From: a virus
Lineage: Duplodnaviria; Heunggongvirae; Uroviricota; Caudoviricetes
IMG/VR virus record: IMGVR_UViG_2703718873_000005
Reading direction: 5' to 3' (one strand)
Length of the DNA: 13,312 nt
Shown: in pieces, positions 1 through 6,000 of the stretch
Layout of the letters: every line of letters begins with the position of its first letter
Numbering within the stretch: the stretch's first letter is position 1
Program-made: the position numbers

Positions 1-3000
1 AATGTGGGGAATCGTGTAATTGGTGGGCTTCGTGATGGTGTTCAGGCTGCGGATGCCGCAACCTATGGTCAGTTAGAGCGCTATCGTATTGCAGAAGAGA
101 ATGCCCGTATTCAGGGTGATGCACAGACACTGAAGTCTGCTAATACCTACACAGATAACCGGGTCAGTACCCTGGAGCGTAGTACTAATCAGCAATTCCG
201 TCAGTTACGTGATGAGGTGGAGAAAAACCGTAAACGTGCAGATGCAGGTATTGCAGGAGCAATGGCGATGACTGCCATTCCTGTTGTTGAGGGTAAAACG
301 TACTCCTTTGGTATGGCTGCAAGTAACTACCGTGATGAGCAGGCTATCGCAGCAGGTATGCACTTCCGCACCACTGAAAATTCTGCTGTACGTTTGAATG
401 CTTCATGGGATACCCAGAACGGTTCAGGTGTTGCTGCGGGTATGTCTGTCGGCTGGTAATTTATTTTTTGCGGAGAACGCCAGCCGTGTTGGTTATCGGA
501 AGCGTTCTCCGTCATCCTTCTGTCGCTGAAGACACAGCACAGTCACATTGTTCTTTTTTGTGGTGAGAGTGTGAGTGAAAAAATTCTCCGGTATATGCAG
601 CGTGTGGTGAGAAATTCCCGCAACCCTGAATTTATGAATGAAGTTAAAGACGCCTGCTTTAAAAAGCAGGCGTTTTGTTTTGAGGCACCTGATGGCTTTC
701 TGGTGCTGCGTTCTGTGCTCAGTGCTGATGGTATCCCTTATGTTCTGGTGTTGCTGGGCGTGTGTACGGGGAGTAACAGTGTTGAGCGTTATCTGCCGGA
801 GGTGAAGACATTAACCCGTCTGGCTGGCGGACGTTGGGCTGAATTTCATACGGCAAGGCGGGGATTTATCCGGCTGGGAAAACGTCTGGGCTTTGAGCGA
901 ATGCCGGATGATGAGGATGGCTTCATGGTGTTCAGGATAGCGGTCTGACTGCCACAGTTTTCATCATCGTGTTTAAACCAACATTGCAATTCACATTCTG
1001 ACCCTGCTCCGGCAGGGTTTTTTTATTATCCAGGGGGCCATTATGGGTGGAAGTAAAGGTGGTGGTGATACCAAAGTAAAACCAACAGCAGCGCAAATAG
1101 CACAGGAAGAAGTGGCCTGGAAAGGGTGGCAGGATTACAAAAATATCCTCCGCCCGGCTGAAGATAACTTCATGGAAAAGGTCGATGACCTGAACAGTGA
1201 GCAGCAGTACGACAATATTGCTGGCACGACAAATCTGGGGTATCAAAAACAGTTTGGCGAAGCGCGGAAGGAGCTGGCAAGTAATCTCACTCGGTCCGGT
1301 GTTGACCCGTCCAGTGGTCGCTTTAACGCGGTAATGAATGCGAACCAGAGTGATCAGGTAACCGGGCAGATTGACACAACCACACGGGGGCAGGTATCGC
1401 AGGCAGATAAGTATGTTGCCGGGCTACAGGATGTTGCTGCTCTCGGTTCTGGTCAGAAGGCGGATGCGTTACAGAGTTTTAACTCTCTGGCAGACAGCAG
1501 TCTGGCAAAAGCTAAATCGGATGCACAGGCGGCGTTTACGAAACAGCAGGGGCGAGCCTCTCTTGTTGGCGCTGGTCTGGGTGCGGCAGGTGCATATGCG
1601 ATGCATAAGGCTGGCGGTAGCGGAGGAAGTGGCGGTGCTAAAACACCTGGCACTGGCGCTAATGCCATTCAGCATCAGGCTCAGAACTGGAGACTGTGAT
1701 TATGGAGTACGGTAAATACGAAACACTTGCGAGATACGGTTATACCGGAGCAGCCCGCCCTCAGGGGGACTGGCAGACATCCGCAGCGCTGACCCGCCAG
1801 CAATACGACGACTGGCGCACCAGATATTTACCCCGTGTAGCAAGGCTGGCTGACCTTGGGGAGAACAACAGTCTGATGAATCCACAGCTTGCACGGGTGG
1901 GAGGCCTTGCCACTTCCAGTCTCCGTACAGCGCAGATGGCGCAGGATAACCAGATGGCGAGATACGGGGTAAGCCGCCCGGATAATCCCGACAGTAATAC
2001 GCTGGGGTTACGTAATGCCCTGGCAATAGCAGGTGCGAAAAATGGTATCCGTGAAGCCGAACAGGATCGCCAGATGAATATTCTGACGGGGGCTTCTGCA
2101 CCGGCAAGACAGAAACTGAGTGTTGGCGGACAACTGGTGGCAGCGTAAGGGGGCAATATGGGATACGGTTTACTGGATATTGCAAATCAGTCGCGGCGTG
2201 AGGCATTACAGGGAATAAGTGACGCAGACAGACGACGTACAGAGATTGAGGCATCAAATAAACAACTGGCTGCTCAACAGAAAGCTCAGAAAAAACAGAA
2301 TATCGGTACGGGCATTGGTACGGGGGCCACTATCGGGGCGACTGTTGGTTCAGCAGTACCGGTAGTGGGGACAGCCGTCGGCGCTGTTGCTGGTGCAGTA
2401 ATTGGCGGCATTGCAGGCGCTTTGTTTTAAGGAGTGGTGAATGAGCGGATTTGCACAGGGGTTACTTGCCGGATTCAGCACTGTTGACCAGGCAATGACC
2501 CGTCGTAAGGAGCTTGGTTTGCGAGAAGCACAGCTTGCTCAGCAACAGAAAAATAACGAGCGCGATTTTGAATTTGCGCAGTCTCAGTTTGAACATAATA
2601 AAGACGTTGATCAGCGGAACTTTGATTACAGAGCCAAAGTTGATGACCGCAATTACACACTGCAGGAAAGGGAGTTTAACGCCAACCAGAATTACCGGAA
2701 TGCGTCGCTGGGGATGGAACAGCAACGACTCCAGTTGCAGAAATACAACCAGCGACGGCTTGAGTATAACGATATGCTGGCGCGCGATCAGCCTGTGATG
2801 GCGGCGCTGGGAAAAGCGATTGATGCGGGTGACCATGATGCGGCTTCTCATCTGTTCGGTAAATTATCGGACGCCAATCCGCTTAAGATGATGTCAACGG
2901 TAGGCTATGCTGCGAAAGCGGGTCAGGCCGTGAACAACCTGCAGAAAATCTTTGATGATAAGCCGGACAGGGCGATTGCTTCGCTGAATACCCCGGAAAA

Positions 3001-6000
3001 TCTCGATGTGCTTTCCGGCGTGTTTGCCCCGGAACTACAACAGCGTATTGGCATGCCTGATTCAACCGGGGAAAAAACGATAAAAGAGGCCAGGATTGGC
3101 AGTATCGTACCGGCGCAGCAGGAAGGGTACGTACTTATTGGCCTTGATCTCACATACAGCGATGGCTCCACCGCGCATAAACCTGTAACAGAATACGGCA
3201 GTGCGCACCCTGATGATCAAACCGTGCTGGCGATACCCGTTGATAAGGCTATCGCTCAGGTCAGGGATCGCAGCAAATTTGCAGAGATATCGAAAAATTA
3301 TGGTTATTTTATGCCGAAGCAGCAGGGACTTTCTCTGAAAGAGCTTCAGAAGGGGGCCAGCAACGTAGCGGCGGACGCGATCAAGAATGGCGGTAATGCT
3401 CAGGCTGCGGTGGATGAATATTATGCTGCGACTGGTTCACAACCGCATCAACAGAAAATTCAGCAACAAAAACTTCAGCAACAGGTTATCAACTGGGCGG
3501 GAGATGATCCTGATAAGCTGTCATTTGCCAGAAATGTAGCGGCCCGTCAGCCTGAAATGCTGGAACCTCAGAATCAGAAATTGCTGGAGAACGGGTATGC
3601 GAATTTTCTCCGTATTCAAAAGGCCAGGGGGGAACAGGCCAGAGATGAAAGTGCTTCATCTGCATCTCAGTTTATCCGTGGACTGAAACAGAATTACGCC
3701 CAGTAATTCACGATATTCCATTAATACCATTTCCTGATGCCCGGCCATTGTGCCGGGTTTTTTTATGGAGTCTGTATGGCCTATTCAGAGGAACAGCGTC
3801 CTGAGGCGCAACTCGGTAACCAGAATCGTAACAGCCTGAACATTCAGCAACCCGGCGAAACTGACAGCTATGAAGCATTTTTCTCTGATCCGAATCGCTG
3901 GAAGGATAACAGTACGTCGTTCAGCCTGGGCGATGTATTGCCAACAATGGGTAAAGGTTTCGCCCAGTCCGTCCGGGGAACAGGGGAAATGGCCCGTGGA
4001 CTCGGTGATGCGATGATTCAGAGCCCGGTAAAAACAGGGGCGCGTATTTTAAATGAGTTCAGCCGTATGGGGCTGCCGGGTGTCGCAACTGTGCAGGATA
4101 TTTTTGCCGGTGGCAGCAGGGGGGCTGATGAGGTCATCGATACCCTGCCTGATGGCAAAAACGCGGTTACTGATACTGTCGGTAAAGGTCTGAAGGCAAC
4201 CGGTAAGGCTGTCAGTGATGGTGCTGAAGCCACTGATGAATGGCTGACCGGTAAGATGTCGCCGGGTGCAGTTCGTGCGCTGAATACGCCGATGACCGAA
4301 GGCTATGATGATTCTGCGGTCTGGGTGGCGAAGGGTGTAAACCTGATTGGTGCGCTTGTACCTGATATGGTTGTTGGCGGTGTGGCTAAAAAGGTGGGTG
4401 ATGTCACACTGCGAAAAATGCTGACCGCCGGGCTGGAGAAAAAATACATCGCGGCAGGGATGCAGCTGGAAAGAGCCACGGCACTGGCAGCAGAAGCTGT
4501 CGATAAAAAAATGCCGGATTTATTCCAGGCGGGCCTGATCACCCATTCCACAGCCAGTGCACAGGGGCAGAGTGCAATGGCGGCAGCAGATGCTGTTCTT
4601 AATGCGGATTACTCTGAGCTGGCGCAGTCACCGAAATTTCAGCAGACGTTTTTGTCCATTGACGCCGACCCGCAGCACGCACAGCTTACTGATCGCCAGA
4701 AAATGGATCTGGCAAAAGAGCGTGTTGCCGATGAGGTGCGCGCGCAGCTGGCAACCGATCCTGAATTGCTGGCTGTGAATGCCATGGCGGCAAAACTGGG
4801 TGACGCACAACTGTTTAATCTGGTGACACGAGGCACAGCGAAGACCGTTAAAAGCGGCATTGTCAGAAATGCCACGGAACAGGGGGCGATTAATGCGGCG
4901 CAGGGCGGCTATTCACGCTATCAGGAAAACACGGCATTGCGTGAGACCGCCGGAATGGATGTGTCACCGTGGGAGGGCGTGGCTGACGCAACGATCGAAG
5001 GTGCAGCCTTTGGTGCTGCGATGGGGGCTCCATCCGGTGCGGTTGCCGGATATCGTGGCAGACGTCAGGCCGCAGAAGAAACCGCCATGCGTGATGCTGA
5101 AACCGTGCAGCAGGACGACGCAGCCCCGCAACCAGAATCTGTTGATCCGGTGGCGCAGCAGCGTGAATCCATGCAGGGCATGAATCGCGAGCAGCTTCTG
5201 GAGCAGTATGCTGATGCGGATATGGCAACAGAGGGTGACGCATCCGCAGCTCATCGCCGGGAAGCTGCCAGCCAGTTGTTGAATGAACTGGACGAACAGG
5301 CGAAGCGACAGGCTGTGATGAATGAGCTGAAGGCGAAGCCGCGTTCTGAACTGCTTGAGGAATACCGCAGACTCAGCCAGAAAGAGGGGCGCACCGAGAC
5401 TGAAGAACAACAGTTTCAGGCAATACGAGAAGTCATTCGCCCACAACAGGAAGTGACGCCGGAAGCACAGTCACAGCCTGAAAATGCGGAGGATGGTAAC
5501 GGGAGCATTTACCCGACGGTGCGGTTCCGGGACCCGAATGAAGTCCGCATTGAAATTAACGGGAATGGTGCGTCCAGACCAGCGGAACGCATTGAAAAGG
5601 TGCGCCCGGACAACCGTTATTTCACGGATGAGAAAAGCGCCATGGGGAGTGATGTTTTCCGTAATGCCGCCGCTACCGGCCTGAAACCGTCCGTAGTGAA
5701 GAAAGGCGAGAATCAGTATGCCGTTGAAATGGATAATCCTGCGTTCTCTGAAGATGTGGCAACGGAAACCATTAACACCCTGGCTGACGGAGAGCGTATT
5801 GCTGATGCTGACCCGATGGAGCAGCCCGCGTTCATGCGTGACCCACGATTCCGTGGTTTCACGGGGGATGATACGGAGGTACAGGCCCGCCTTGCCCGTG
5901 GCAACGTGCCGACGGCAGAGGAGCTTGTACGTTCACAGATGGCTGAAGGTGATGCCGGTCCGATAGCACAGGAGTTAACTGAGCGTCCACGCCTGCCCGC

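Follow-up and report, generated by a model that had tools for sequence, protein, structure and literature searches.

The four small genes that precede a giant gene in the DNA analysed here (the window, 13,312 nucleotides) most likely help, together with the giant, to inject phage DNA. With a fifth small gene upstream, they are interpreted, at a probability of about 0.75, as the internal-virion (ejection-protein) module of a podophage of the 933W/Sp5/phi24B type. Ejection machinery is of the expected kind; its assignment to these genes, termed P1 to P4, is new. An initial sequence-only reading had likened the genes to an ejection cassette co-packaged with one large protein, and virion proteomics, synteny and profile searches all support that proposal.

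Gene organization

The window covers the right-hand end of the late operon in an E. coli Shiga-toxin (Stx) prophage, short-tailed and of the 933W/Sp5/phi24B type, and shows 96-99 % identity to Stx phages and prophages. Its ORFs correspond to Sp5 ORF75-80 and phi24B gp52-47, such that P1-P4 are equivalent to Sp5 ORF76-79 and phi24B gp51-gp48 and are followed by the gene for a polyvalent protein of ~2,790 aa (Table 1). True morons (lom, hok and YadA-like genes) lie near the cassette.

Table 1. Features of the proposed internal-virion gene cassette, with positions in the window
Feature	Coordinates	Strand	Equivalents	Description
ORF75 homologue	571..948	+	Sp5 ORF75/ECs1237; phi24B vb_24B_43	fifth small cassette member; 125 aa from GTG start (RefSeq annotation 117 aa)
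Terminator-like G+C hairpin, then T run	1000..1019	+		exactly within the ORF75-P1 intergenic gap
P1	1043..1699	+	Sp5 ORF76/ECs1238; phi24B gp51	218 aa; helical, Ala/Gly/Gln-rich internal virion protein
P2	1702..2148	+	Sp5 ORF77/ECs1239; phi24B gp50	148 aa; basic, Arg-rich internal virion protein
P3	2158..2430	+	Sp5 ORF78/ECs1240 (83 aa); phi24B gp49	90 aa; PGAP name 'bacteriocin'
P4	2441..3706	+	Sp5 ORF79/ECs1241; phi24B gp48	421 aa; essential internal virion protein
Terminator-like hairpin, then T7	3739..3758	+		between P4 and the giant gene; overlaps the giant ORF's first in-frame ATG (3737)
Giant polyvalent protein	3776..12154	+	Sp5 ORF80/ECs1242; phi24B gp47	about 2,792 aa; virion-packaged, essential

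Most of what the sequence-only reading described was borne out. The four ORFs are co-oriented on the + strand at 1043-3706, each preceded by a Shine-Dalgarno site (GGAG or GGGGG); none of the products has a signal-peptide-like N-terminus, and a Pfam search of P1-P4 revealed no enzymatic family and no family above cut-off, Dar proteins included. The compositional bias is also present (A 15, G 13 and Q 10 % in P1; A 12 and Q 11 % in P4; G 17 and A 18 % in P3, which carries a C-terminal glycine zipper), and all four proteins contain 0 Cys residues. The tight packing stands for the P2-P3 and P3-P4 gaps (9 and 10 nt), but the reported overlap of P1 with P2 does not. Translation of P2 almost certainly starts at ATG 1702 and not at 1696, because GGAG lies 9 nt upstream, homologues begin MGYA or MEY, and the Sp5, phi24B and RefSeq annotations agree on 148 aa; this leaves 2 nt between P1 and P2, without overlap. 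For the giant gene, the most likely start is ATG 3776, which has GGAG upstream, and not 3737, where the hairpin covers the ORF's first ATG. The total of terminator-like sites in the region is not above shuffle expectation, and the site at 1000..1019 is a candidate only.

Four small genes do lie before the giant as described, but upstream of them the cassette includes a fifth. This ORF75 homologue (phrog_610) adjoins P1 in Aeromonas (42 %), Vibrio and Pectobacterium phages and accompanies P1-P4 in 35/35 divergent viral contigs. Its forward-frame peptides are absent from the phi24B virion proteome, and its deletion is not listed among the defective Sp5 mutants (Mondal 2016). A Pfam search gave no match, and an hhalign comparison with P22 gp14 was negative (Prob 1.3 %). 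The ORF75 product does not belong to the virion, and it may serve as an assembly factor.

Conservation of the gene block

The order ORF75-P1-P2-P3-P4-giant, directly after the nozzle and needle genes, is found in Aeromonas phage phiARM81mr, Vibrio phage 1.205.O and a Pectobacterium prophage, on the same strand throughout. It is also collinear in 35/35 divergent IMG/VR contigs in which P1 is only 47-58 % identical (best aligned segment); this collinearity of P1-P4 with the upstream fifth gene is newly reported here, and the arrangement is far beyond chance. In phages and prophages alike the cassette always comes last in the tail module. Homologues were not consistently located in non-phage contexts, and no match to an unrelated pathway emerged.

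Virion content and mutant phenotypes

The supplement of the phi24B preprint reports proteomics of CsCl-purified virions. There gp51, gp50, gp48 and gp47 (P1, P2, P4 and the giant) were detected at about 20-45 copies each, by numbers that are rough, within a factor of 1-3: about 19-23 for gp47, about 22-27 for gp51 and about 36-48 for gp50. Normalised to portal, the values are about 23 for gp47, 37 for gp48, 27 for gp51 and 44-48 for gp50. Batch PSMs were 746, 179, 82 and 83 for gp47, gp48, gp51 and gp50, against 101 for portal and 42 for nozzle. These copy numbers are of the same order of magnitude as those that P22 injects, given as about 12 gp7, 12 gp16 and 30 gp20 in PMC8402733. The P3 orthologue gp49 was weakly detected (6 PSMs in the batch digest, 13 in total), and was set aside as contamination in the phi24B study because of its name. 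All four abundant proteins are absent from the phi24B cryo-EM model, with a structure-based abundance of 'ND', and the tail model is complete from portal, two adaptor rings, nozzle, needle and lateral fibres. The phi24B authors proposed gp47 as an ejection protein in their preprint.

Deletion of Sp5 ORF79 (P4) or ORF80 (the giant) gave no plaques and no lysogens, and both deletions were complemented; in the mutant particles, heads were normal and DNase-protected DNA was at the wild-type level (Mondal 2016). P4 and the giant are thus essential after DNA packaging. Deletion of ORF76 (P1) retained infectivity at a markedly reduced level and strongly reduced lysogenisation, deletion of ORF77 (P2) left plaques and lysogeny normal, and deletion of ORF78 (P3) was without phenotype (Mondal 2016). 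The laboratory dispensability of P2 and P3 counts against the ejection reading.

Relationships of the individual proteins

P3 consists of a polar N-terminal helix and a C-terminal glycine-zipper membrane segment (residues 52-90; maximum Kyte-Doolittle 19-residue hydropathy, KD19, 1.95) with the terminus G-A/S-L-F. By hhalign it aligns with residues 158-229 of the P22 ejection protein gp7 at Prob 90-93 % (E 2e-7 to 2e-6), with a real score of 43.7 against a shuffle mean of 13.6 (sd 2.8, max 22.6). P3 thereby matches the C-terminal glycine-zipper module of gp7 and is its counterpart, a likeness first drawn here. Pfam glycine-zipper and Bacteriocin_IIc matches to P3 are all below gathering cut-offs, and in PHROG it matches tape-measure proteins and tail lysins at their glycine-zipper segments. 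The RefSeq/PGAP label 'bacteriocin' is a misnomer.

P1, 100 % identical to phi24B gp51, belongs to phrog_611, with a second match to phrog_8003 ('virion structural protein', 2e-9). By profile comparison it is homologous to the Bcep22 virion protein gp70 (hhalign Prob 95-97 %), a link that is also new, and family members in BcepIL02, BcepMigl and Ralstonia UAM5 carry virion-associated names. At its N-terminus, P1 is similar to the start of mature P22 gp7 (Prob 54 %, E 1.3e-4), beating all 40 column shuffles; with a broad profile the value is Prob 6.7 %, and the Pfam P22_gp7 model is reached by neither P1 nor P3. A Gly-rich, weakly hydrophobic segment lies near the C-terminus (about residues 172-190). 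The KD19 maximum of 0.82, with no strongly hydrophobic segment, counts against an ejection-protein role. P1 is regarded as a candidate gp7/gp14-type ejection protein.

P2 (98.6 % identical to phi24B gp50; phrog_596) may be a paralogue of the P1 core domain, as proposed here from family profiles in which P2 25-145 aligns on P1 19-138 (hhalign Prob 95.9 %, E 5.7e-9). The match is weak with enterobacterial-only profiles (E 0.033); P2 also aligns with Bcep22 gp70 (Prob 82 %).

P4 is an elongated helical protein, 93 % identical to phi24B gp48, with a G-L/F-x-x-G-F motif conserved at the N-terminus, a single helix of ~125 residues and then a mixed alpha/beta and helical body. No fold relative was detectable, nor any sequence or fold likeness to known tunnel proteins. 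Residues 1-280 of one protein (P0152) resemble the P4 N-terminus (E 3.7e-13); its residues 911-1380 share 36 % identity with P22 gp16 (E 1e-76), and residues 500-533 share 79 % identity with a homologue of the giant. The P4 N-terminal domain is thus naturally fused to a gp16-type ejection protein, which had not been described before this work. By position, P4 is a candidate periplasm-spanning component analogous to P22 gp20, T7 gp15 and N4 gp51. Its elongation, and the AF2 model of P1 (helices only, no fold, low confidence, pLDDT 48.6), agree with the description of ejection proteins as plastic and core-less.

The giant (96 % identical to phi24B gp47) contains LPD5, LPD1, MuF_C and LPD38 domains, all far above Pfam cut-offs, and only one weak hydrophobic segment. 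Its ~430 N-terminal and ~900 C-terminal aa are conserved in Vibrio and Burkholderia giants, the middle being variable, and the C-terminal part matches a 'DarB-like antirestriction' PHROG.

Proposed role and alternatives

In the proposed mechanism, the capsid would take up P1-P4 in tens of copies, along with about 20 copies of the giant, and all would be disordered or off-symmetry, either around the portal/tail channel or within it. Upon release of the central needle, the cassette proteins would exit via the nozzle before the DNA. The P3 glycine zipper and the P1 Gly-rich C-terminus may then insert in the outer membrane, as for P22 gp7, T7 gp14 and N4 gp52; P1, P2 and P3 have the appearance of a gp7-type protein that was duplicated or split, and P2 would be an accessory paralogue. 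P4, with a helix of roughly 185 A, could oligomerise to span the periplasm, in the place taken by P22 gp20, T7 gp15 or N4 gp51, and the giant would complete the conduit at the inner membrane and bring its effector domains into the cell. ORF75, outside the virion, may act in assembly.

That the small proteins are instead adaptors or chaperones that load the giant effector into the head without any channel role, as Hdf, DarA and DdrA of phage P1 do for DarB, is considered unlikely. The giant is polyvalent, with putative effector domains and the DarB-like C-terminal match; the small proteins are co-packaged with it in similar copy numbers; Dar packaging in phage P1 needs several accessory proteins (JC1 paper); and the dispensability of P2 and P3 would allow a cargo-loading role. 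Nevertheless, P4 and the giant are absolutely required on a K-12 host, which a pure anti-defence cargo should not be, and P1-P4 have no above-cut-off Pfam match, Dar proteins included. Moreover, the glycine zipper with which the conduit protein gp7 inserts into membranes is present in P3, the P4 N-terminal domain is fused to the conduit protein gp16, and there are no other candidate ejection proteins among the essential late genes of the podophage.

A reading in line with the conclusion of Mondal et al., who interpreted the ORF79 and ORF80 deletions as affecting 'tail formation' (Mondal 2016), would make P4 and the giant, perhaps with P1, short-tail components or assembly factors rather than capsid-internal ejected proteins; it is quite unlikely. 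Their deletion particles, with packaged DNA and normal heads, did not bind antibody against the tail fibre (ORF67), but this result is negative and was given as data not shown (Mondal 2016). An internal protein that reaches the adaptor/nozzle lumen could be needed for stable tail attachment, and the N-terminus of N4 gp52 occupies a position of that type. Furthermore, the phi24B cryo-EM tail is fully accounted for without P4, the giant or P1, though these are as abundant as portal, and the gp7 and gp16 links indicate ejection proteins and not tail parts.

A highly improbable reading would make the genes lysogenic-conversion or regulatory morons, with P3 a bacteriocin (its RefSeq name, and a weak Pfam Bacteriocin_IIc match of 17.3 bits) and P4 a transcription factor (from a phi24B spreadsheet and the GenBank note on vb_24B_47, 'similar to putative transcription initiation factor'), in the company of the true morons lom, hok and YadA-like nearby; yet the Bacteriocin_IIc match is under the 27.1-bit cut-off and spans the glycine zipper only, P3 has no double-glycine leader and export and immunity genes are absent nearby, P1-P4 are translationally packed within the late structural operon and kept in lytic-looking marine Vibrio phages without morons, and P4 is abundant in the virion and essential for infectivity.

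Comparison with known systems

The cassette, interpreted as an ejection-protein module, can be set beside that of P22, where gene 14 (an assembly factor), gp7, gp20 and gp16 likewise form a co-oriented block that ends the tail genes of a temperate enterobacterial podophage. Sizes rise from small to large in both (151/229/471/609 aa in P22), and the products are packaged in tens of copies and needed for infectivity, not for DNA packaging. Classical P22 ejection-protein mutants keep their tails, which, set against the antibody result on the ORF79 and ORF80 deletion particles, speaks against the ejection reading. The gp7 C-terminal glycine zipper aligns with P3, terminal G-S-L-F included, the mature gp7 N-terminus is resembled by that of P1, and a gp16 homologue is found fused to the P4 N-terminal domain. 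Unlike P22, the cassette has five small genes rather than three, with gp7-like features spread over P1, P2 and P3; similarity is not detectable between P4 and gp20, the giant and gp16, or ORF75 and gp14; the large partner reaches about 2,800 aa and bears polyvalent effector domains; and P2 and P3 are dispensable.

In the Schitoviridae (N4 gp52/gp51/gp50; DEV gp73/gp72/gp71), small membrane-active and medium helical proteins also stand beside a virion-packaged giant, a virion RNA polymerase of about 3,400-3,500 aa that is invisible in reconstructions and binds the medium protein through its conserved C-terminal part. Stx phages have a major capsid protein of the N4 gp56 family, and very fast divergence is common to P1-P4 and the Schitoviridae small proteins. 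In contrast, the giant here has LPD5, LPD1, MuF_C and LPD38 in place of an RNA polymerase domain, P4 has no sequence or fold match to gp51 or gp72, and the two systems differ in gene order and in how many small proteins they have.

The Bcep22-like podophages of Burkholderia and Ralstonia (Lessievirus; gp70, gp74 and the DarB-like giant gp75; JC1 gp64-gp69) have the same structural module as the Stx phages, with homologous portal, N4-type capsid, adaptors and nozzle, and an analogous block whose members have been found in virions by mass spectrometry. Their gp70 is a homologue of P1, and the giant's C-terminal ~900 aa are homologous to gp75. In Bcep22 a single polypeptide of 331 aa, gp70, combines a hydrophobic segment at its N-terminus with a glycine zipper at its C-terminus, whereas its Stx equivalent would be P1, P2 and P3 together; acyltransferase-like and PAPS-reductase genes are inserted in the Bcep22 block, and gp74 has no detectable similarity to P4.

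The T7 internal core proteins gp14/gp15/gp16 are of the same functional class and follow the same small-medium-large gene logic, but without sequence or fold similarity, and their ordered core stack is not seen in phi24B. The SLT domain of T7 gp16 is shared with a Bcep22-type giant, that of Cupriavidus, which carries it as an N-terminal lytic transglycosylase domain. The phi24B portal has a barrel, a feature that correlates with dispersed ejection proteins in other phages.

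Gene organization of the cassette

A cluster of four small co-oriented genes (P1 to P4) ahead of a giant gene was likened in the sequence-only reading to the internal-virion or ejection cassettes whose products form a channel for genome delivery. Assignment to this class is now supported by virion presence, absence from the ordered structure, essentiality and homology, while a part in a channel is suggested by analogy with known systems; the cassette and the giant gene are best fitted by an ejection-protein module of the P22, T7 and N4 kind.

Short-tailed Stx-converting phages and E. 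coli prophages match the window at 96-99% identity across 87-100% of its length, among them VT2-Sakai/Sp5, 933W relatives and phiSTEC1589, all Sepvirinae of the genus Traversvirus. In all, 189 phage records match it, as do 434 of the 5,426 complete E. coli genomes, where the match is nearly always chromosomal. In the chromosome that matches best, it is situated at the right-hand end of the late operon of a prophage, and upstream of it are genes for an N4-gp56-type capsid protein, an adaptor, a tail fibre, a 541-aa protein and a 'tail tip' protein, together with the morons lom, hok and a YadA-like adhesin gene. The cassette has the arrangement that marks the ejection class, namely clustered, co-oriented late-operon genes adjoining tail genes, with the large member last.

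The four reading frames are present as first described, each with a Shine-Dalgarno site and with gaps of 9-10 nt; the compositional bias of their products holds, and a Pfam search found no enzymatic domain in them. One pair had been described as overlapping, and this is not upheld. P2 is placed at ATG 1702 because GGAG lies 9 nt upstream, homologues share that methionine, and the resulting 148 aa is the length in Sp5, phi24B and RefSeq; there is therefore a 2-nt gap to P1. The small gene ahead of P1, homologous to Sp5 ORF75, is a fifth member of the conserved block. For the giant gene, ATG 3776 is the probable start rather than 3737, which leaves 69 nt after the end of P4.

Features of the cassette and its flanks in the window
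Feature	Coordinates	Strand	Product or remark
YadA-like adhesin gene, upstream	4-459	+	cut by window end
ORF75 homologue, fifth small gene	571-948	+	in same conserved block
Hairpin with T run, ORF75/P1 gap	1000-1019	+	G+C-rich
P1	1043-1699	+	218 aa
P2	from ATG 1702	+	148 aa
P3	2158-2430	+	90 aa
P4	2441-3706	+	421 aa
Hairpin with T run, P4/giant gap	3739-3758	+	G+C-rich
YadA-like adhesin gene, downstream	12515-13312	+	cut by window end

Two G+C-rich hairpins, each followed by a T run, lie exactly in gaps of the block, and overall such sites are no more numerous than expected from shuffling. Late transcription under Q antitermination would have to pass through both, and in the prophage they could shield the virion genes from moron promoters. 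Genes for YadA-like trimeric autotransporter adhesins flank the cassette; the downstream one begins with a signal peptide and lies in a stretch of low G+C (0.40). Since most Stx phages match the window only from 562 to about 12191, both seem to be morons inserted into some of the prophages only. In the GenBank record of phage phiSTEC1589-Stx1c (PQ600364.1, locus L001), product names of the features at 11248-14430 are clearly misplaced: the name 'terminase large subunit' is given to the YadA-like gene, 'portal protein' to ORF75 and P1, and 'N4-family major capsid protein' to P3, the true capsid gene lying 20 kb upstream.

Relation of the small proteins to known ejection and virion proteins

The profile searches proposed with the sequence-only reading led from P3 to the C-terminus of P22 gp7, from P1 to the Bcep22 virion protein gp70, and from the N-terminal domain of P4 to a fusion with gp16. 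With hhalign, the P3 family aligns to residues 158-229 of gp7 (Prob 90-93%, E 2e-7 to 2e-6), and the alignment extends to the extreme C-terminus, where both proteins end G-S/A-L-F. The match is more than shared glycine composition, because with the gp7 segment shuffled the score against P3 averages 13.6 (sd 2.8, maximum 22.6; z about 10), as compared with 43.7 for the real sequence. The Pfam family P22_gp7 (PF25688), against which gp7 itself scores 428 bits, gave no match to P1 or P3 at E <= 0.1, nor to the Aeromonas P1 homologue at E <= 1.

The P1 family matches gp70 with Prob 95-97% (hhalign), gp70 itself being hydrophobic in a segment near the N-terminus and having a glycine zipper at the C-terminus. 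The P1 N-terminus also aligns to gp7 residues 23-75, with Prob 54% for one profile and 6.7% for a broader one, above all of 40 column shuffles; the alignment begins at gp7 residue 23, just past the cleavage site, and is suggestive of a relation of the P1 N-terminus to that of mature gp7. Residues 25-145 of P2 match the P1 core (19-138) with Prob 95.9% when the broad P1 profile is used and weakly with enterobacterial-only profiles, and P2 matches gp70 with Prob 82%, so that P2 is possibly a paralogue of P1, judged from profile comparison. No single cassette protein covers gp7 fully. An AF2 model of P1 is purely helical, with a pLDDT of 48.6 that is too low for a fold search; such a low-confidence helical model would fit proteins that fold only in assemblies and is in itself no evidence. 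Sequence searches of the PDB with P1, P2, P4, the giant and the P4-family profile were empty, and Pfam searches of P1, P2, P4 and ORF75 and of their Aeromonas, Vibrio and Bcep22 counterparts gave nothing, or sub-threshold matches only (e.g., EcsC).

P4 belongs to a small, fast-evolving family (69 representatives at E <= 1e-3 among 1.84 billion proteins) that is broadly alignable over its N-terminal ~280 residues only. A first homologue search returned only near-identical E. coli clusters, and the diversity came from a search of representatives. By hhalign the family is not matched to P22 gp20 (Prob <= 0.4%), to gp16 or to Bcep22 gp74, and the helical 'leg' fold of periplasmic-tunnel proteins (T7 gp15, P22 gp20/Inj_translocase, N4 gp51, DEV gp72) was not found in P4. 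In one representative, P0152 (1,386 aa), three segments can be recognised: residues 1-280 are homologous to the P4 N-terminus (E 3.7e-13), residues 500-533 share 79% identity with a protein homologous to the giant's N-terminal third, and residues 911-1380 share 36% identity with P22 gp16 (E 1e-76), with a precomputed Pfam assignment to Phage_P22_gp16. P0152 thus joins a bona fide ejection-protein domain to P4 and giant modules in one polypeptide, and P4 is thereby linked functionally to the ejection apparatus. The P0152 gene lies in Pectobacterium sp. GCA_051468635.1 (locus L007, 10001-14161), in a satellite-like island with integrase, AlpA, Bro-N and D5/Toprim primase genes. The same genome carries a prophage (L013) with its own ORF75-P1-P2-P3-P4, and the P4 of this prophage is 35% identical to the chimera N-terminus. 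The island might be a satellite that encodes an ejection protein for its helper's particles.

From these findings a differently built 933W/phi24B ejectosome can be drawn up, in which a gp7-type outer-membrane protein has been duplicated and split into P1-P3, P4 is a periplasmic-conduit protein of new fold with a portable loading module, and a satellite inserts its own ejection protein into helper particles. Within this joint reading P1 may be core plus weak zipper, P2 core only and P3 zipper only, and the N-terminal ~280 residues of P4 may be a portable virion-loading module that also heads the gp16 chimera. Taken as a whole this reading is unlikely.

Conservation of the block and variability of the giant protein

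By local BLASTP, Aeromonas phage phiARM81mr and Vibrio phage 1.205.O have homologues of the whole block ORF75-P1-P2-P3-P4-giant in the same order, and in both phages it directly follows nozzle-like and needle-like genes with no morons intervening; identities to the phiARM81mr proteins are, in block order from ORF75, 42, 50, 47, 48 and 22%. A Pectobacterium prophage has the same block. Scanning IMG/VR with a P1-family motif gave 80 loci, including a divergent subset of 35 in which P1 is 47-58% identical in the best aligned segment. Homologues of ORF75, P1, P2, P3 and P4 occur in order and on one strand in 35/35 of these divergent loci, with the conserved N-terminal region of the giant downstream in 31/35. 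The cassette is thus found among structural genes in relatives, following the nozzle and needle genes where morons are absent. Homologues in non-phage contexts, which would have spoken against an ejection role, were absent, the only unusual context being the island with P0152. P1-family members are named 'virion-associated' or 'virion structural' by the sources for Burkholderia phages BcepIL02 and BcepMigl and Ralstonia phage UAM5, and for JC1, a Bcep22-like phage, mass spectrometry of virions detected the products of the genes immediately preceding the giant DarB-like gene (JC1 paper). The module is common to Aeromonas, Vibrio, Pectobacterium, Salmonella and Burkholderia phages, and the assignment therefore transfers widely.

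In the Pectobacterium prophage (L013, 13650-16337 and downstream) the post-cassette gene encodes only 895 aa, matching the N-terminal third of the giant, and after it Mu-type genes (Mor, GemA, Gam) lie on the opposite strand. The 895-aa protein was considered as a 'minimal' C-terminal core and rejected on account of this N-terminal match; it is probably a truncation. The locus is either one with a truncated giant gene or a hybrid of a 933W-type virion module with a transposable-phage early region.

The giant has LPD5 (153 bits), LPD1 (84), MuF_C (72) and LPD38 (167) domains, all above Pfam cut-offs. Polyvalent proteins are virion-packaged, injected multi-effector proteins, LPD38 being noted in phage-type ones only (Iyer et al. 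2017), and the giant fits this class, with multiple LPD or effector domains on a single chain whose gene lies with the virion genes. Its first ~430 and last ~900 residues are kept in Vibrio and Burkholderia giants and the middle is variable; its N- and C-terminal families are unmatched to P22 gp16, gp20 and gp7 by hhalign. In a Cupriavidus-type Bcep22-like contig (L014, 13220-20981) the giant gene encodes at least 5,524 aa, beginning with an SLT lytic transglycosylase domain, as in T7 gp16, followed by FtsK_gamma, InPase, helicase and PBECR3. This contig shows that the cargo part of the giants is highly variable, the small upstream genes staying in place. The small proteins could be Dar-like loading adaptors for the giant cargo; beside the P3-gp7 match and the P4-gp16 fusion it is quite unlikely.

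The ORF75 homologue adjoins P1 in every relative examined, yet it is missing from the virion proteome of phi24B, and Sp5 can do without it. A hydrophobic stretch in its centre (42-68) and its position recall the P22 assembly factor gp14. The ORF75 family is unmatched to gp14 and to the acyltransferase-like gp69 of Bcep22 in hhalign comparisons, and a GNAT or gp14-like fold, guessed from sequence, is unsupported by them.

Genetics and virion composition of Sp5 and phi24B

Much of the support for the ejection-protein module is already in the literature on two Stx phages that carry the orthologues. The Sp5 proteins (supplement of Mondal et al. 2016) are ORF75/ECs1237 (133 aa), ORF76/ECs1238 (218), ORF77/ECs1239 (148), ORF78/ECs1240 (83), ORF79/ECs1241 (421) and ORF80/ECs1242 (2,793). 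Their counterparts in phi24B (HM208303) are vb_24B_43 to 48, the last five being gp51, gp50, gp49, gp48 and gp47 of a cryo-EM preprint, and phi24B identities to the window, from ORF75 to the giant, are 97.6, 100, 98.6, 82, 93 and 96%.

With in-frame, marker-free deletions, Mondal et al. (2016) showed that loss of ORF79 or ORF80 gave zero plaques and zero lysogens, with complementation in trans, and that the deletion particles held DNase-protected phage DNA at wild-type amount in heads of normal appearance. Deletion of ORF76 left some infectivity, with very poor plating and lysogenisation, and ORF75, ORF77 and ORF78 were outside the defective set (Mondal et al. 2016). A requirement for infectivity and not for head assembly or packaging is accordingly seen for P4 and the giant, and partly, as a reduction, for P1; P2 and P3 are without phenotype.

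The 2026 bioRxiv preprint on phi24B (10.64898/2026.04.10.717836) combined cryo-EM with LC-MS/MS on purified virions, the particles comprising about 52,000 filled with DNA and about 36,000 emptied. The tail was fully modelled, with portal gp72, adaptor rings gp64 and gp62, nozzle gp57, central needle gp56 and lateral fibres gp61; by size and gene position, gp57 is taken to be Sp5 ORF70 and gp56 ORF71. Batch-digest PSMs were 746 for gp47, 179 for gp48, 82 for gp51 and 83 for gp50, the portal and the nozzle giving 101 and 42, and portal-normalised copies were ~23, ~37, ~27 and ~44-48 for gp47, gp48, gp51 and gp50, for all of which the structure-based abundance was 'ND'. Their absence from the atomic model fits an internal location, density being assigned to none of them. 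No forward-frame peptides of the ORF75 homologue were found in the virion proteome. The preprint's authors proposed gp47 alone as ejection protein and posed the organisation of this giant 'ejection protein' as a question; gp48-gp51 were not discussed and the Sp5 genetics were uncited. Orthologues of P1, P2, P4 and the giant are thus present in phi24B particles, as the proteomic check suggested with the sequence-only reading would have it, on the data of one preprint. Together the two studies show that P1, P2, P4 and the giant abound in virions and have no position in the ordered structure, and that two of them are essential after DNA packaging.

The main objection to an ejection role comes from Sp5 itself: anti-tail-fibre antibody binding was absent in the ORF79 and ORF80 deletions (data not shown), and both genes were filed under 'tail formation' (Mondal et al. 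2016), as would befit tail-assembly proteins. The antibody result might reflect a need, in stable attachment of the tail, for an internal protein that extends into the lumen of the adaptor or nozzle. The adaptor lumen is where N4 gp52 lies, and the phi24B authors invoked 'internal tail contents' to explain a tail tilt seen in filled particles only. A tail-assembly function for these proteins is very unlikely.

P3, an 83-90-aa glycine-zipper protein, is named 'bacteriocin' in RefSeq (PGAP). In the phi24B preprint gp49 was seen with 6 PSMs in the batch digest (13 in total), and was filed as 'most probably contamination' following the annotation 'E. coli bacteriocin'. Against Bacteriocin_IIc P3 scores 17.3 bits (cut-off 27.1), with the glycine zipper alone covered; no double-glycine leader is visible in its sequence, and its neighbours are virion genes rather than linked bacteriocin export or immunity genes. 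A class II bacteriocin was rejected on these three grounds, and given the P3-gp7 link it is probably a mistake to name P3 a 'bacteriocin' or to class it as a 'contaminant'. That the small genes are morons for a bacteriocin or a transcription factor is scarcely credible beside their place in a collinear block of virion genes.

Significance and comparison with known ejection systems

Shiga-toxin genes are carried mainly by short-tailed Stx phages. The principle is not new, such proteins being expected in podophages, and the interest comes mainly from the medical importance of these phages. Placing P1-P4 in an ejection module offers a reconciliation of the 2016 'tail formation' genetics with a 2026 structure that lacks a tail place for them, and argues that the 'bacteriocin' label spreading through RefSeq, which led to a real virion protein being discarded as contaminant, is wrong. 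It also makes P1-P4 defined targets for work on genome delivery and superinfection exclusion in EHEC phages. Assignment of the four small proteins to the ejection apparatus was not found in the literature that could be examined; added here are the P3-gp7 link, the P1-gp70 homology, the possible P2/P1 paralogy, the P4::gp16 fusion, the fifth gene and the 35/35 synteny.

In the mechanism proposed, the proteins would be packed in the head, exit through the nozzle once the needle is released, and build a path for the DNA. P3 and P1 would be outer-membrane-inserting elements, P4 a periplasmic element and the giant an inner-membrane or cytoplasmic element with effector cargo, P2 being perhaps an accessory paralogue and ORF75 a non-virion factor; we infer these roles from position, size, the gp7 link and hydropathy. 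P4 (421 aa), directly before the largest ejection-type gene, was counted as having the position and size of tunnel proteins (about 430-980 aa). P22 carries ~12 copies of gp7, ~12 of gp16 and ~30 of gp20 (PMC8402733), and the copy numbers here are therefore comparable.
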